From Candidatus Bathyarchaeota archaeon B26-2 (GTDB lineage: Archaea > Thermoproteota > Bathyarchaeia > Bathyarchaeales > B26-1), in the NCBI GenBank assembly GCA_001593935.1, contig LUCE01000019.1, positions 35,491 to 99,490 on the forward strand: a stretch of 64,000 nucleotides of DNA, given 5' to 3'. Position numbers and translations under genes: made by a program. Shown one piece after another: positions 19,589 to 24,704 of this stretch (position 1 is its first letter; each line of letters starts with the position of its first letter). A model generated the notes under the pieces. That model did no database searches. It saw nothing but the letters and a program-made list of their open reading frames with translations, and was not told the DNA's origin.

Positions 19589-19861
19589 ACGTAAACCTCA
19601 ACCTCCACACTTTTAGAAGACACACGATCTTCCTTCAACCTTTTTGAGGTACATTACGTCTTCCCGATGAGAAGCCGAGTTCATGTTGGGTTTCTGGTGT
19701 CTTCTGTTCAGCGTCTTAGACAGATGTGTCCATTCTAGGAGCCTTTTTTATCGTTTTTGAACAGTTCGGACCAGCACAATTACCCATACATAGGACCGTG
19801 TTGAAGTCTATGGTGAAGCGACGTGAGATGAACTTCATAGATGCGAAGGAGGTGGTGTGGA

Positions 19862-20029
19862 ATGGACCCGAAAACGAGCGTGTGTTTCGTCGTGTTGGCA
19901 TCTTCCGAGGCCTCTGAAAGGTCGAGGGAAGAGCTCAAAGAGGCCATAGCCTTATTGGGGAAGCTATCCTGCTGGAAGATCGAGAAGGTGACGCTCTTCG
20001 AAGACCAGAGAATGAGCGAGCTAAAGTGA
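19862..20029 (+). CDS. Possible small protein (55 aa) in the leader of the MoxR module
   Basis: ATG at 19862 lies 8 nt after GGAGGTG. The translation MDPKTSVCFVVLASSEASERSREELKEAIALLGKL... looks like a small alpha/beta unit. No family recognised. Confidence 0.25.
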   Translation: MDPKTSVCFVVLASSEASERSREELKEAIALLGKLSCWKIEKVTLFEDQRMSELK

Positions 20030-20118: not shown

Positions 20119-20144
20119 GTTGAAGCCCAGTTTTAGGCTTCAAC
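20119..20144 (+). other. Perfect 9-bp stem / 8-nt loop hairpin followed by a pyrimidine tract
   Basis: GTTGAAGCC-cagtttta-GGCTTCAAC, then attctcttctctcttc. It lies between the small ORF and the MoxR module. Confidence 0.3.
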
Positions 20145-20222
20145 ATTCTCTTCTCTCTTCATTTAGTCCCGGTCTCGGTGCCGATGGTTGAGGATTGGAG
20201 AAAAGTAAAAATCTTACGGAGT

Positions 20223-20230
20223 ATATACAT
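20223..20230 (+). promoter_or_regulatory. Candidate TATA box for a near-leaderless transcript of the MoxR module
   Basis: TATATACA is centred ~21 nt upstream of the ATG at 20247, close to the archaeal TATA-to-TSS spacing. Confidence 0.3.
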
Positions 20231-20246
20231 TATTGTGGTTAGAGCG

Positions 20247-20600
20247 ATGAACGAGACCTACAGGAGATTTCTAGTACTCGAGTCTAAGAGGTACCCTCTG
20301 AAGATGAGTAGGAACACGGTCTCGTGGGAGAGCGAGGATCGGGGATCACCTTCAGAGGCGGATCACCCCAGAGATATACTTGAGTTCATGTATCTCGAGA
20401 GGGGAACGCAGGACGCAGTGGTCATGGACAAGAGGGTTGCTGCGATGCTTCAAGACCGGCTTAGAAACCTAGAAGAGGAGAACCAGCATCTAAGAGGCAG
20501 GGTTAGGATCATGAAGTTCTTGGTCGGAGGCCTCGTGGTCGTGGCTCTACTCTTGACCTGGATGTTGATAGAGATACTCTTCTTCCCGATATACATGTAG
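20247..20600 (+). CDS. Tail-anchored coiled-coil membrane protein (hypothetical)
   Basis: The leucine-zipper-like stretch LQDRLRNLEEENQHLRGRV is followed directly by the C-terminal TM helix FLVGGLVVVALLLTWMLIEILFF. Ends 14 nt before the next gene. Confidence 0.5.
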   Translation: MNETYRRFLVLESKRYPLKMSRNTVSWESEDRGSPSEADHPRDILEFMYLERGTQDAVVMDKRVAAMLQDRLRNLEEENQHLRGRVRIMKFLVGGLVVVALLLTWMLIEILFFPIYM

Positions 20601-20614
20601 GGAGAGAATGGAAT

Positions 20615-21844
20615 ATGTCGTTAAGAGGTAAGATTAAAGATTTAGAGCTTGAGTTGAAGTCGAGGTTTGTCGGTAACGAGGAAGTAATCCATATAATGAT
20701 TCTGAATCAGTTGCATCCGCGTTCAACGACGCTCATACGTGCTCCTAGAGGACTTGGAAAGTCGACCCTCATGTTGCTTACGCTCAAGGGCGTATGTGGG
20801 GAGGACATAGTAGTCGTCTCGGGAGCTTCTGAAGTGAAGCGCGGCGAGGTTGTAGGCCGGCTTCACATACCGTCCTTGGAGCGGGAAGGTGTTGAGAGGG
20901 TTCTATGGGCAGCCTTCACGAAGAGTAGGGGAAAAGGCTTAGACGAGATGAATAGGCTCAACCCCTACACCACAGCGAACATCCACCACATGATGCAGTT
21001 CGGCGAGGTCTGGGCTTACGGTCAGAGAACCGTTATCGGTGATTACACCCTTATAGCCAACGAGAACCCCTTAGACGTGACGTCCTTCATCCATCCTCCT
21101 CCCTTCTATGACCGCTTCGACGTCTGCCTATACTTGAGCTCGCTGAGCCTAAGCGAGAAGTTCCAGCTCCAAGACCTCTTGGAGAAGTACGACTGGAACA
21201 TGGTAGACTCTATGCCTCAGGTTCTCTCCTTCGAGGAGCTCGAGGAGGCCCGTAAAGAGGTCTCAAGCGTAGAGCTCAGTCCGGAGATAATCGGTTACAT
21301 AAACCTCTTGGTGAGGGACTTCCAAGTCTGTATTCGGGAGAAGGAGAGGTCGGAGATTAAGCCTCCCACCCTCTGTGAAGGGTGCCACTTCATAAGGGAC
21401 GTCTGCAGCATGGTTAAGGAGCCATTAAGTGAGAGGGCGACGATAGCCTTAACCCACTTAGCCAAGGCATCTAAGTGGCTTTACGGGAAGTGTGACATCG
21501 AAGATGTGTTCCGCATGGCTCTCTGGGTTCTACCCCACCGCATGACCTTGGTTCGGACCAGAAACCTCTTAGAGGACCTCCAAAGCCTCCTCGAGAGGGA
21601 ACGCGTAAAGATGGAGGACCGGAACATGAGGAGGCAGTGGGCCCTCCTCAACAACCTGATGAACAAGTTCAACCCCTCTCTCTACAGGCTTGCTAGGGAC
21701 GCAGCGGTCGAGGACGTGGTGCTCGCAGAGGAACTCATAAAACTAGAGGATAAATGGGTTAAGGAAGGTCTCCTAAGGAGGGACGAGCTCCTCTCCACCC
21801 AGATGGGCTGGAAGATACCGCAGGTATGGAGCCCCCGCACATAA
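20615..21844 (+). CDS. MoxR/ChlI-clade AAA+ ATPase
   Basis: Walker A APRGLGKST, Walker B GLDEMNR, sensor-1 region IANENP, YDRFD, and lid helix VLPHRMTL. The C-terminal domain carries CEGCHFIRDVC. Confidence 0.8.
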   Translation: MSLRGKIKDLELELKSRFVGNEEVIHIMILNQLHPRSTTLIRAPRGLGKSTLMLLTLKGVCGEDIVVVSGASEVKRGEVVGRLHIPSLEREGVERVLWAAFTKSRGKGLDEMNRLNPYTTANIHHMMQFGEVWAYGQRTVIGDYTLIANENPLDVTSFIHPPPFYDRFDVCLYLSSLSLSEKFQLQDLLEKYDWNMVDSMPQVLSFEELEEARKEVSSVELSPEIIGYINLLVRDFQVCIREKERSEIKPPTLCEGCHFIRDVCSMVKEPLSERATIALTHLAKASKWLYGKCDIEDVFRMALWVLPHRMTLVRTRNLLEDLQSLLERERVKMEDRNMRRQWALLNNLMNKFNPSLYRLARDAAVEDVVLAEELIKLEDKWVKEGLLRRDELLSTQMGWKIPQVWSPRT

Positions 21845-23643
21845 TGAACCGACCGAACAGAACCGAAGAGATCGACATAACGGAGATCTTCAATCAAGCA
21901 TGGGCTGAGCTCTACTGTCCCCCGGTTAGGCTCTCCCTGGTACAGGAGGGGGGAGATGATGGTGATAGACCCCTCAGTCCAGCCCCTTTCTCGGTGCTGA
22001 ACGGCACGATCTACCTCAAGCCTGACATCGTTCCTAGGGGCTGCGACCCCAAGAGGTTCCTCCTCTGGTACTTCAGACACGAGATGGCTCACATCCACAA
22101 CTGTCCATACGATATAAAGACGGCTTACAGCCTCGAGAGGGCCGCCTACAAGGTTGTGGGAGACTGGAGCCTCGCGTACTTGGCGACACACATCTTTGCT
22201 GATCTCCAAGTGAACCTCAACTACCTCCCTAAGAGGTTCAACGAGATACCTTACATCATAAGTGTCATTGGGGAGAGGGCTTCATCCCTGCTTGACGAGA
22301 TTCTACAGGGCGTCTACGTGAACATCCACTCCGCCATCAAGCCCAAACATAGGGATATATCAGAGGCCGGCAGGGAGATCGCGACGATCATCAGCCTCAA
22401 CAAGACATGGCACACCAAGGTTCAGATGATAGCCATAATTCTGCGGAGGCTCAGGAGTAGGTGTCCCAGACTCTTCTCGAAGGGAAAGATGAGGAAGTTC
22501 ATAATAGAGAACCCAATTCGCATCAGAGAGGACTTCCTACCGAACTCGATGAGTATGATCGAGGAGACATACGGGTCGATCACCGATCAAGAGGAAGCCC
22601 GAGAATTCTTTAGGCACTGGGTTGAACCCCGCCTCCCGAGGGGAGAGATGGAAGAAGCCGAGGAGAAGCTGAAGAGGAGGCTTAAGATCAGGAGGAGTAG
22701 AAAGAAGGAAAAGAAGGGGGGAGGCGACGAGAAGAAGGAAGGCCCTCACGGGGGGAAGGAGGTTGACCTCAAAAAGGACTTCAAGGTCTCAGATGACCTC
22801 TTCGGGGATGAGCCTCACCTATCGACCTCCCTATCGAAGCCTTACGATAAGATAGGTTCAAACTCTATGAGGGAGGCCTTCTGGAAGAGGTATTGGTACC
22901 GGTCGAGGGCTGAGAGGATAATAATTCAGTACTTGGCTGAGAGTCCAAGCCGGAGGCCCGTATGGTCCGTTGCGAAGTATCCGGACGAGTGGTACATAGA
23001 GGACGACATAGAGGACTTGGACGTAGAGATGAGCCTAGACGAGGGACCGCTGATACCGGAGGTCACGACCTTGAAGTGGGTTGAGGAGCCTACTTCTCAA
23101 GGCCAATCCATCATAAGCGGGTTCGTCCCTTCGGCCATAACGGTCTTGGACTCGAGCTACAGCATGATAAAGACCCACGACGTGGCGGCGATCGCAGCCT
23201 TCATAGCCCACCTCAGCGCCTTCAAGGCTGGAGGCCAAACATCCGTTGTGAACTTCTCGACGAGGTACGTCTCCGCCGACTGGAACTCTCCTCCAGACGT
23301 TAAGGAACTCACCCTCTCCATGAGCTTTAATGAATTCACAGTCTTCCCGGCCTACGAGGTTATGAGGTTAGCCTCGTCCAATAGGGGGGTTTGCTTCATC
23401 GTCATAATCACGGATGGGGGGTGGCAGAACGTAGACGAGGCGGTTCCCCTCCTCGAGAGGATGGCCGATCTAGGGCATAAAATCTTCATCTTCCAGCTTC
23501 CGGGTGGAGAGTACATGGACCGAATAGAGTTCATAAAGAGGAGCCCCCACATCCAAGTCTACAGAGTTGATAAACCCGAAGTAGACCTGCAGAACCTCGT
23601 CCTCTCGGAGAGCATCAGAACGTATAGGAAGTTCCTAACCTAA
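21826..23643 (+). CDS. HExxH metallopeptidase-like domain fused to a von Willebrand A domain (DUF2201-like architecture)
   Basis: N-terminal GTIYLKPD...FRHEMAHIHNCPYD. C-terminal MIDAS VLDSSYSM, FTVF and ITDGG. A K/E-rich linker lies at 22640-22790. It overlaps the ATPase gene; the alternative ATG at 21844 gives a TAATG junction. Confidence 0.8.
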   Translation: MEPPHIMNRPNRTEEIDITEIFNQAWAELYCPPVRLSLVQEGGDDGDRPLSPAPFSVLNGTIYLKPDIVPRGCDPKRFLLWYFRHEMAHIHNCPYDIKTAYSLERAAYKVVGDWSLAYLATHIFADLQVNLNYLPKRFNEIPYIISVIGERASSLLDEILQGVYVNIHSAIKPKHRDISEAGREIATIISLNKTWHTKVQMIAIILRRLRSRCPRLFSKGKMRKFIIENPIRIREDFLPNSMSMIEETYGSITDQEEAREFFRHWVEPRLPRGEMEEAEEKLKRRLKIRRSRKKEKKGGGDEKKEGPHGGKEVDLKKDFKVSDDLFGDEPHLSTSLSKPYDKIGSNSMREAFWKRYWYRSRAERIIIQYLAESPSRRPVWSVAKYPDEWYIEDDIEDLDVEMSLDEGPLIPEVTTLKWVEEPTSQGQSIISGFVPSAITVLDSSYSMIKTHDVAAIAAFIAHLSAFKAGGQTSVVNFSTRYVSADWNSPPDVKELTLSMSFNEFTVFPAYEVMRLASSNRGVCFIVIITDGGWQNVDEAVPLLERMADLGHKIFIFQLPGGEYMDRIEFIKRSPHIQVYRVDKPEVDLQNLVLSESIRTYRKFLT

Positions 23644-23660: not shown

Positions 23661-24458
23661 TTAAATCTTGAGTAGAGGCGTATAGAGGTCGACCCTCCGG
23701 TCGGCCCAGAGGTTGTTTCGTTCGGTAACCTTCTTAGAGTCTGAGAACTGGGGGTCGACCTCTACAACTCTGACCTCTTCCTTGTCTCTTTCGCCCTTGG
23801 CTAAGACCCTCATGGCTGGGTCGACTATCTGGCTCATACCGGTGAACCTCAACCCTCTCTCAAATCCTATCCGGTTAGCCGTTATTATGAAGACCCTGTT
23901 CTGGATAGCCGCCCCGAGGAGCGCGGATTGACAGTACGGCAGAACCAAGTTTGACGGGTGGCACACGATCTGAGCTCCCTTCAGGGCAAGTATGCGGATG
24001 ACCTCTGGGAAGAACCAGTCGAAGCAGATCATCATCCCCACTTTAGCCTTCGCTATGCTGTGAACTTGGAATGGTGTGTCGCCTCTAGTGAACCACAACT
24101 TCTCCTCGTCGAAGAGGTGGGCCTTCCTGTACTTAGCCACGAACCCTTCAGGTCCAACCAGAACCGCTGAGTTGAAGTATCTGTCACTGCTCCGCTCGCA
24201 TATTCCCGCAACTATGTAGAGGCCGGCCTCCTCGGCAAACCGGATGAGCGTCTCGGTGGTCCTCCCGTTTGGAATCTCCTCAGAGAGGCTCCTAACCTCC
24301 TCCTCGCTCATGAACCTATACCCCGTGCTGCAGAGCTCCGGCAAGACTAGGAGGTCCGCCTCCTCTCCGGCTCCAACATCGAGAAGACTCAGCATCCTCT
24401 GGATGTTCCGTTCCTTCTCGCCGAAGACGGGCTCAAACTGAACGAAGCCAACCTTCAT
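23661..24458 (-). CDS. Carbon-nitrogen hydrolase (nitrilase superfamily)
   Basis: E-K-C triad contexts VLPEL, YRKAHLF and MMICFD. The likely start is MKVGFVQF. Confidence 0.85.
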   Translation of the reverse strand: MKVGFVQFEPVFGEKERNIQRMLSLLDVGAGEEADLLVLPELCSTGYRFMSEEEVRSLSEEIPNGRTTETLIRFAEEAGLYIVAGICERSSDRYFNSAVLVGPEGFVAKYRKAHLFDEEKLWFTRGDTPFQVHSIAKAKVGMMICFDWFFPEVIRILALKGAQIVCHPSNLVLPYCQSALLGAAIQNRVFIITANRIGFERGLRFTGMSQIVDPAMRVLAKGERDKEEVRVVEVDPQFSDSKKVTERNNLWADRRVDLYTPLLKI

Positions 24459-24704
24459 GAAGAAAGCCTCCATAACCACGCCTACAGCACACACATCTGC
24501 ATATTCCTAAAAAGTTAACGCTTACGTTAAGTTGTAGGGGTATTTGAGGAGTGGGGGTCATCCTCTTCTGGTTACCAATAGAGTTCTCCTTTTGATAATC
24601 AAAGTTTTGGGTTTCCAATGGTTGAGGGGTTCTCGGGCAAGGCACAGCGAACATATGTCCTCACAACTATAATGAAGGTGAAAGTTAATATCTCTAATTT
24701 CACT

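Follow-up and report, generated by a model that had tools for sequence, protein, structure and literature searches.

An archaeal three-gene MoxR/VWA locus with a tail-anchored third component and no linked client

Few AAA+ systems are as widespread, and as poorly understood, as MoxR/VWA pairs, and to our knowledge every characterised pair has been defined by a neighbouring client. Here we describe a three-gene locus (the triad; genes g1, g2 and g3) in a 64-kb stretch of DNA from Candidatus Bathyarchaeota archaeon B26-2 (contig LUCE01000019.1, positions 35,491 to 99,490; the whole stretch is referred to as the window), which encodes a small tail-anchored protein, a MoxR-class AAA+ ATPase, and a protein joining a zincin-like N-terminal domain (N-domain) to a von Willebrand factor A (VWA) domain. 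As a module it is ancient, conserved and clearly delimited, and falls within the conceptual frame of MoxR-VWA machines. It stands apart through its class-wide conservation in archaea (g2 59-92% identical), the absence of a linked client, and the fixed presence of a putative membrane tether, and two of its parts, g1 and the g3 N-domain, lie outside any domain database. Our literature search found no description of the triad, and in the databases its proteins are named only “hypothetical”, “AAA family ATPase” or “VWA domain-containing”. The three genes are:

20247-20600, forward strand: g1, 117-aa tail-anchored protein (open reading frame; start revised from homologue lengths and alignment)
20615-21844, forward strand: g2, 409-aa divergent MoxR-class AAA+ ATPase (Pfam AAA_5, profile match to 2R44)
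21844-23643, forward strand: g3, 599-aa putative adaptor (open reading frame; identical public gene call P0001)

A described system of similar layout is NorQ-NorD, a MoxR/VWA chaperone that inserts FeB into cNOR (PMC9976466). Both combine an AAA_5-type MoxR ATPase with a partner composed of an N-domain, a disordered linker, and a VWA domain with a DxSxS-T-D MIDAS (an adhesion site that depends on a metal ion). From cryo-electron microscopy and modelling it has been proposed that the MoxR hexamer is plugged by one NorD VWA monomer, whose finger sits in the pore, that the MIDAS binds carboxylates of the client, and that the N-domain provides specificity (PMC9976466); the NorQD structures are PDB 9qhd, 9qhe and 9qhg (2026, cryo-electron microscopy). 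However, NorQD lies beside its client in the nor operon, and next to the triad no client is encoded. Moreover, the N-domain of NorD is not zincin-like, NorQD is without a membrane-anchored third protein, and g2 has in addition an invariant cluster of cysteines and a further domain at its C-terminus. CbbQO, CoxDE and GvpN are, like NorQD, encoded beside their clients, and here too the triad differs. Among solved MoxR-class ATPases the g2 profile reached, at E ≤ 1, only 2R44 (E 2.7e-6) and no NorQ or CbbQ chains. 2R44, an uncharacterised Cytophaga protein of the MoxR-proper/MRP-like type, has the AAA_5/MoxR motif set in common with g2, but the match covers only about 120 residues, from Walker B to sensor 1, and 2R44 has neither the Cys cluster nor the g2-specific C-terminal domain.

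Going by the Pfam descriptions, we take DUF2201_N plus DUF2201 proteins to be fusions of an HExxH domain with a VWA-like domain, usually encoded beside a MoxR ATPase. A preliminary description of the window, made from the sequence, had called g3 DUF2201-like, a label that our searches do not sustain: neither model (PF13203, PF09967) matched any of 36 members of the core g3 family at E ≤ 1, and in the more distant Asgard tier described below PF13203 matched none of 36 members and PF09967 matched one weakly (E 0.0067), while the annotations of 44 further relatives contain neither. The DUF2201 pairing is also without g1. For the g3 N-domain the relevant comparison is MJ1213, presumably the minigluzincin selecase. 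It resembles the N-domain in its N-terminal helix, beta-strands and HExxH helix, which follow the same predicted secondary-structure order, whereas g3 differs in the xHxCPYD continuation of its motif, in a helical bundle of ~180 residues, and in the loss of the motif Glu in 43% of the family. Selecase is a metallopeptidase of M. jannaschii (PMC10808063). On the VWA side, the closest solved protein by sequence profile (E 0.013) is the crenarchaeal ArnB (Sulfolobus, ArnAB complex, PDB 8s05), but its partner is the FHA/zinc-finger protein ArnA rather than a MoxR ATPase, and it has no zincin-like domain.

The vWA-MoxR ternary conflict systems, predicted by comparative genomics, occur in bacteria and are associated with multicellular lifestyles. 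As third component they have VMAP, iSTAND, FtsH or a beta-propeller, and some contain peptidase domains; the vWA proteins, often present in several copies, bear hypervariable effectors at the C-terminus (PMC7159879). They share with the triad a MoxR plus vWA core accompanied by a third conserved protein. In the triad, however, this protein is the 117-aa g1, with a leucine zipper and a transmembrane (TM) helix, and the match to bpMoxR is only E 0.27. By these comparisons the triad belongs to the MoxR and VWA superfamilies and is neither a DUF2201 pairing, nor a ternary conflict system, nor a client-linked couple. What is new is the fixed tail-anchored third component, an uncatalogued N-domain that appears zincin-like and bears an H-x3-H-x-H-x-C-P-Y signature, a MoxR ATPase with a putative zinc knuckle, and the distribution across Thermoproteota and Asgard archaea.

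Conservation of the triad and its Asgard relatives

The triad is the only conserved unit across the 84 related loci gathered for synteny analysis, which come from Bathyarchaeia, Brockarchaeota, Thermofilaceae and other Thermoproteota and at some of which the available room is limited, and its genes are inherited together. Gene-family clustering over these loci recovered g3 in 84, g2 in 76 and g1 in 67, and the next family in 19. Of the 80 loci with any room, 77 have g2 immediately upstream of g3; g1 lies directly upstream of g2 in 63 of the 67 loci with room by clustering, and in the other four by a scan for open reading frames (ORFs). No client enzyme was consistently adjacent in the 84 loci, the neighbours being lineage-specific housekeeping genes. 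A ThiL-like AIRS protein, HMG-CoA reductase, a radical SAM protein and a CN-hydrolase, among others, were considered as conserved client neighbours and rejected, each being confined to one sub-lineage. The suggestion of the preliminary description that the module is an autonomous cassette is thus upheld across archaeal genomes, with g1 syntenic in effectively all loci with room.

The g3 homologues form 129 clusters at 90% identity, all of them from metagenome-assembled genomes (MAGs) of Thermoproteota (Bathyarchaeia, Brockarchaeota, Thermofilaceae/Thermofilum and other Thermoprotei); triad members come exclusively from MAGs, and no cultured host was found among them. A genome scan detected g3 in 99 species-level genomes, the closest being Bathyarchaeota B26-1 (81% identity), and the family is single-copy, with one locus per assembly in 78 assemblies. 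Across classes g3 is 34-81% identical, and the stronger conservation of g2 is the pattern expected for a conserved motor with a faster-evolving adaptor. Between the window and Thermofilaceae, identity amounts to 59% for g2 and 36% for g3, and g1 is undetectable by tblastn. A 4-kb contig in a MAG labelled Deltaproteobacteria (locus L042, QMLA01000132.1) carries a Thermoproteota-type g3 with 36% identity, of the same sub-type as that of locus L039, and probably reflects a binning error rather than a bacterial occurrence.

In the window the ORF list contains three co-directional ORFs (20178-20600, 20615-21844 and 21826-23643). The stop codon of g1 (TAG, 20598-20600) and the ATG of g2 at 20615 leave a gap of 14 nt, and the g2 stop overlaps the g3 start in the TAATG at 21842-21846. 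The start of g3 is placed at ATG 21844 because the public gene call P0001, a protein identical to g3, is 599 aa long. Both the tight packing and the overlapping junction had been noted in the preliminary description, and the ORF list, the gap and the public call confirm them. In related loci the median spacing is 6 nt between g1 and g2 and -4 nt between g2 and g3, and such close or overlapping spacing indicates co-translation. Composition is unremarkable, no triad paralogues were found in the 64 kb of the window, and neither the module nor its surroundings gave an Rfam or tRNA match.

When 1.84 billion representatives were searched with a profile, 402 relatives were returned. Beyond the core family there is a more remote tier, whose proteins are 500-690 aa long and combine the motif HE[IL]xHYxxCPYD with a VWA domain; by their source names they are assigned to Thor-, Loki-, Hermod-, Odin-, Jord-, Baldr- and Promethearchaeota. 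Their partner is a longer AAA_5 ATPase (564-669 aa) that is 31% identical to g2 and shares with it the AAA core and the LCxGCHF cluster; the C-terminus is different. No g1-like region or gene was found in the Asgard-tier loci, and fusion of g1 into the longer ATPases was rejected after both the g1 profile and blastp proved negative. Asgard archaea are the closest prokaryotic relatives of eukaryotes, and the triad is of interest as a relative of a pair found throughout this group.

In Jordarchaeales, Baldrarchaeia and Thorarchaeota the g2/g3 relatives adjoin a homologous ~300-aa AAA-like gene and an SMC gene, in a co-directional arrangement in two of these lineages and a divergent one in the third. 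The loci are:

L085, 4310-12852: Asgard SMC-adjacent locus
L088, 4296-13047: Asgard SMC-adjacent locus
L094, 15-8734: Asgard SMC-adjacent locus

This adjacency may reflect a functional link between the MoxR/VWA pair and SMC. It is absent in the Lokiarchaeota locus L093 and in two other Asgard-tier loci on short contigs, and SMC adjacency in the core family was rejected, there being no conserved SMC neighbour in the 84 core loci or the window.

Architecture of the three proteins

Judged by its motifs, g2 is a MoxR-class AAA+ ATPase that is divergent yet complete. It matches Pfam AAA_5 with 29.0 bits (cut-off 22; E 1.2e-6), and PF07728 is precomputed for almost all of its homologues. AAA_lid_2 reaches 20.8 bits, which is under the cut-off of 22.7, and PF17863 is precomputed in a few homologues. 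Its AAA_5 core, in which helix-2 insert and pre-sensor-1 hairpin regions are present, is followed by a Cys cluster, a putative AAA lid, and a helical domain specific to the family at the C-terminus (residues ~320-409). The motif features are:

20741-20767, forward strand: g2 Walker A, APRGLGKST, residues 43-51 (G46, G48, K49, S50 and T51 invariant)
20942-20947, forward strand: g2 Walker B, D110-E111 (invariant)
21329-21406, forward strand: g2 Cys cluster, C239-x14-C254-x2-C257-H258-x5-C264 (five residues invariant)

Invariance was assessed in an alignment of 17 diverse homologues ranging from Bathyarchaeia to Thermofilaceae, with a mean column identity of 71%. In this alignment NENP (149-152, sensor 1), DRF (R167, the Arg finger) and HR (308/309, sensor 2) are likewise invariant, and the earlier assignment of g2 as a MoxR-type AAA+ protein with intact motifs is supported. 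A correction is needed for the cysteines: they had been placed as CxxCx6C in the extra C-terminal domain, but the cluster sits just before the AAA lid, where it probably forms a zinc knuckle at the core/lid junction. By analogy with related ATPases, g2 is predicted to assemble into a hexameric ring.

The features of g3 follow one another as zincin-like N-domain, disordered K/E-rich linker, conserved acidic segment, and VWA/MIDAS domain:

21844-22629, forward strand: g3 N-domain, residues 1-262, modelled as zincin-like
22075-22113, forward strand: putative metal-binding motif R78-H79-E80-x2-H83-x-H85-x-C87-P88-Y89-D90 (36-sequence alignment)
22630-22803, forward strand: K/E-rich disordered linker, about residues 263-320 (composition and model confidence)
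22951-23118, forward strand: acidic segment, about residues 370-425, IEDDIEDLDxExSLDEGPLIPEVTTLKW (conservation)
23119-23640, forward strand: VWA domain, with MIDAS residues D436-x-S438-x-S440 (23149-23163), T499 and D524 (Foldseek and alignment)

An AlphaFold2 model of g3, built from 36 homologues, has a mean predicted local distance difference test score (pLDDT) of 81 and a predicted template modelling score of 0.80. At the sequence level the window g3 has no match in Pfam, NCBIfam, PADLOC or PDB sequences, NCBIfam giving noise-level hits only. The C-terminal half is, according to the model and the alignment, a genuine VWA fold with a complete MIDAS, as had been proposed from the DSSYS...T...D pattern. 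Foldseek returned probability 1.0 to more than 40 VWA structures, the best being NorD (9qhe_G, E 1.3e-5), followed by ArnB (8s05), the MIDAS domain of MDN1 (8ql1) and integrin I domains, all with probability 1.0; NorD aligned over 273-285 columns and integrin-type VWA domains over about 180-190. D436, S438, S440, T499 and D524 are invariant in 36 homologues. DxSxS plus TDxGW was present in 80 of 86 ORFs, and the other six were without one or both, at least some of them being truncated. With the Pfam VWA models the window g3 gave no match, and 25 of 36 members gave sub-threshold VWA_2 hits (best E 0.0013).

The acidic segment lies between two beta-strands, directly before VWA strand 1. Its residues W383, L392, D393, G401 and E406 are invariant, its pLDDT is below 50, and by analogy with NorD it is a candidate finger for the ATPase pore. 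The linker preceding it is 57% K/E/R/D, has a pLDDT below 50 for residues 293-321, and varies in length and sequence among homologues. That it is encoded by a conspicuous purine tract, as had been noted, proved correct: positions 22640-22790 are 78% purine, a value reached by only 10 of the ~63,850 segments of 151 nt in the window, of which the maximum (0.795) starts at 22636.

The HEMAH motif reported earlier is present in the N-domain of the window protein; its interpretation as an HExxH peptidase is supported in part. The N-domain model (pLDDT 88) runs from a helix and a three-stranded sheet through the motif helix to a helical bundle, with HEMAH on the helix of residues 69-86, after strands 29-32, 49-52 and 55-58. 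This modelled topology fits that typical of zincins. In addition, the N-domain profile matched MJ1213 (PDB 4QHF-4QHJ) colinearly over 77 residues (6-82) with a marginal E of 0.019, and in the profile alignment the HELLH of MJ1213 is in exact register with the g3 motif. On the other hand, Foldseek against PDB gave nothing significant for the N-domain, with zincins at noise level only, and Pfam gave no match to it. R78, H79, H83, H85, C87, P88 and Y89 are invariant in 36 g3 sequences, with H85, C87 and D90 as candidates for the third zinc ligand. At the position of the motif Glu (E80), however, 47 of 82 core members have E and the remaining 35 carry one of eleven other residues; in the Asgard tier the Glu is kept in 23 of 24 members in which the motif was found. 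Since the Glu is replaced so often, proteolysis is not the conserved function of the family, and with invariant His and Cys beside a variable Glu, the conserved feature is a metal site and not a catalytic centre. The window g3 retains the Glu and could be an active peptidase.

When the N-domain model (without the VWA domain) was compared with BFVD, the best matches were phage proteins annotated as VWA-domain or CobT-like, the top match being 637 aa long (E 0.03, probability 0.98). These model matches hint that an N-domain plus VWA design related to g3 occurs in phage CobS/CobT-like pairs. Sequence searches for g3 in annotated phages found nothing.

At its N-terminus g1 has an FxxFLE helix, followed by a short beta region and a variable linker; after a DxLDxxYL...V..DR element comes a leucine zipper, which leads into a C-terminal TM helix. 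This architecture is conserved across 51 aligned homologues:

20415-20516, forward strand: g1 predicted coiled coil, about residues 57-90 (read from sequence)
20517-20585, forward strand: g1 C-terminal TM helix, about residues 91-113 (hydropathy and homologues)

The zipper spans four heptads, with L68, L75, L82 and M89 in d positions and L72, N79, V86 and V93 in a positions, one of which is thus occupied by Asn (N79); its consensus RLxxLEEENxxL is conserved in the alignment. The Kyte-Doolittle 19-mer maximum is 2.54, at residue 95, and an uncharged C-terminal run of 15-23 residues occurs in every g1 homologue. Heptads and hydropathy agree with the earlier reading of a leucine-zipper-like coil that runs into a C-terminal TM helix. 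By the same hydropathy measure g2 and g3 contain no such hydrophobic segment. No Pfam family matched g1 above threshold (bZIP_2, E 0.09, not significant). The gene had originally been taken to begin at GTG 20178; its start is very probably ATG 20247, because homologues of 100-125 aa align from that Met and because a promoter-like box, described below, sits inside the GTG extension.

A proposed mechanism and its competitors

The explanation that we favor, and to which we give about an even chance, is that the triad is a self-contained, membrane-tethered MoxR/VWA remodeller acting on a client encoded elsewhere. Because g3 has the layout of NorD, by analogy g2 would be the motor and g3 the adaptor. 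In analogy to NorQD and CbbQO, g2 would form a hexameric ring on which a single g3 docks via its VWA domain, with the acidic segment as the finger in the pore. The MIDAS metal would capture an acidic side chain of the client, while the zincin-like N-domain would provide a second, specificity-determining grip by holding a peptide segment of the client in its metal-containing cleft, and possibly cut the bound segment where the Glu is retained, as in the window. ATP hydrolysis by g2 would then be relayed via g3 so that the client is pulled and remodelled. g1, probably as a parallel dimer, would hold the complex at the cytoplasmic face of the membrane. Its docking site is most likely the family-specific C-terminal domain of g2, because both this domain and g1 are absent from the Asgard two-gene form.

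This proposal should be interpreted with some caution, since several points weigh against it. No neighbour gene across the 84 loci points to a client, and g1 itself could be the client rather than the tether. The finger assignment concerns regions modelled with low confidence, and the peptide-binding role suggested for the N-domain derives from the marginal MJ1213 match, Foldseek having lent it no support. Finally, three loci carry a full-length g3 without adjacent g1 or g2:

L038, 9752-11545: full-length g3 without adjacent g1/g2
L081, 9974-11701: full-length g3 without adjacent g1/g2
L082, 9965-11722: full-length g3 without adjacent g1/g2

Upstream of g3 in L081 and L082, a ~975-aa protein is encoded in place of g1/g2.

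The features of the metal site could also be read as those of an ATP-gated protease, the foremost competitor, in which the g3 N-domain would be an active minigluzincin kept latent, for example through a cysteine switch with Cys87 supplying the fourth zinc ligand. The ring of g2 would activate g3 or supply it with substrates, and g1 or membrane-proximal proteins would be cut in the course of regulated proteolysis or quality control. A precedent is Wss1, a minigluzincin-like protease under a cysteine switch whose partner is the AAA ATPase Cdc48 (PMC4559962). The intact Glu in the window, in more than half of the core members and in nearly all Asgard-tier members with the motif agrees with this explanation, as do the colinear MJ1213 match with HELLH in register and the invariance of Cys87, four residues after the second His. 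We nevertheless regard it as unlikely, since the 35 members in which the Glu is replaced by eleven different residues keep g1, g2 and the MIDAS, so that whatever preserves the triad as a unit does not require proteolysis; furthermore, no peptidase was a significant structural match in the Foldseek search of PDB, and the third zinc ligand can only be named among candidate residues. Quite unlikely, in our view, is a dedicated maturation or cofactor-insertion couple serving one unlinked enzyme in the manner of NorQD, CoxDE, CbbQO or GvpN, with g1 as a minor accessory. All experimentally characterised MoxR-VWA pairs do serve a dedicated complex (PMC3893208; PMC9976466), NorD is the closest structural match of the g3 VWA domain, and there are weak matches to a cobaltochelatase model and to CobT-like phage VWA proteins. 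However, the lack of a consistently adjacent client argues against such a couple, and the invariant linkage to the membrane-anchored g1 is foreign to it.

An anti-virus or conflict system of the vWA-MoxR ternary type, the context evoked by the preliminary description, would make g1 a membrane effector or sensor and the peptidase a signalling step. Ternary systems of this kind have been predicted (PMC7159879), the three-component MoxR-vWA layout with a peptidase-like domain is reminiscent of them, and g1 could in principle disrupt membranes. But the triad has no VMAP, iSTAND, FtsH or beta-propeller component and no variable effector domains; its architecture is fixed in 84 loci, it is single-copy with housekeeping flanks and unremarkable composition and shows no resemblance to a defence island, and the conservation of g2 across classes is atypical for arms-race genes. 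PADLOC returned nothing meaningful, with a generic AAA-level mad8 match for g2 (13.7 bits, E 0.008) and nothing for g1 or g3, and there are no usable phage homologues. Taken together, a conflict system is very unlikely. The least probable explanation, and one to which we attach hardly any weight, is that the ATPase and zincin-VWA pair acts together with SMC, for instance in the removal or remodelling of proteins bound to chromatin, and that the Thermoproteota triad is a membrane-tethered derivative. It draws on the SMC-adjacent loci of the three Asgard lineages; the adjacency is missing in Lokiarchaeota and in the two loci on short contigs, as well as in the core loci and the window, and the core family has a membrane anchor instead. 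A broader, improbable idea combines several of these elements: triad and Asgard pair would be an ancient MoxR machine peculiar to Thermoproteota and Asgard archaea, in which a zinc-knuckle ring ATPase gates a latent minigluzincin via the invariant-Cys switch, with g1 as its membrane tether in Thermoproteota and a coupling to SMC in several lineages of Asgard archaea. If true, prokaryotes would possess a counterpart of proteases that are coupled to AAA ATPases, such as Wss1/SPRTN with Cdc48.

Natural variants that keep the metal site without the catalytic Glu are at hand for testing whether the N-domain binds or cuts; the Thermofilaceae protein P0116 is an orthologue lacking the Glu. Defining the client would extend the MoxR repertoire by a new function, and could clarify how AAA+ motors came to be coupled to MIDAS domains (midasin, VWA8) and to zincin proteases.

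Flanking genes and the upstream region

The triad is flanked upstream in the window by genes for a pyridine-nucleotide oxidoreductase, GAPDH and PGK, and downstream by those for a CN-hydrolase, an FmdE-like protein and a tautomerase, in agreement with the housekeeping flanks (pgk, nitrilase) described earlier. The CN-hydrolase (nitrilase-family) gene, at 23661-24494 on the reverse strand, is convergent with g3. The same convergent arrangement downstream of g3 occurs in 13 loci including the window (the others being L006, L008, L011, L013, L018, L019, L022, L024, L031, L035, L055 and L069), at a median distance of ~1.1 kb. Among the neighbours in the sub-lineage to which the window belongs, this gene persists most widely; elsewhere it is absent.

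The module had been described as lying behind a ~590-nt leader. A long interval is indeed present, but it is not empty; it contains a conserved small ORF, a hairpin and a promoter-like box:

19862-20029, forward strand: 55-aa ORF MDPKTSVCFVVLASSEASERSREELKEAIALLGKLSCWKIEKVTLFEDQRMSELK, conserved, with a GGAGGTG Shine-Dalgarno-like site 7 nt upstream
20198-20220, forward strand: A/T-rich box GAAAAGTAAAAATCTTACGGAGT, resembling a B recognition element/TATA box (block identical in the closest relative, L006)

The GAAAAGTAAAAATCTTACGGAGT block is identical in L006 although the surrounding stretch has diverged. It lies about 27-49 nt 5' of the g1 ATG, inside the proposed GTG extension, and in view of archaeal promoter architecture it is a candidate promoter of the triad. 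Downstream of the 55-aa ORF there is a hairpin (20119-20144) followed by a pyrimidine tract. The ORF matches no Pfam family. It also occurs upstream of g1 in L006 (78% identity), L008, L024, L069 and L031, all from Bathyarchaeia, and was not found in the loci of other lineages; as a general fourth component of the module it was rejected, being present in only these five other loci.

A further block, at ~19695-19840 of the window, is 80-90% identical to L006, the only locus in which it was found, and has no Rfam match. It is apparently non-coding, because it differs from L006 by indels of 1 nt and 4 nt, and it could be a small RNA or a regulatory region of the 55-aa ORF.

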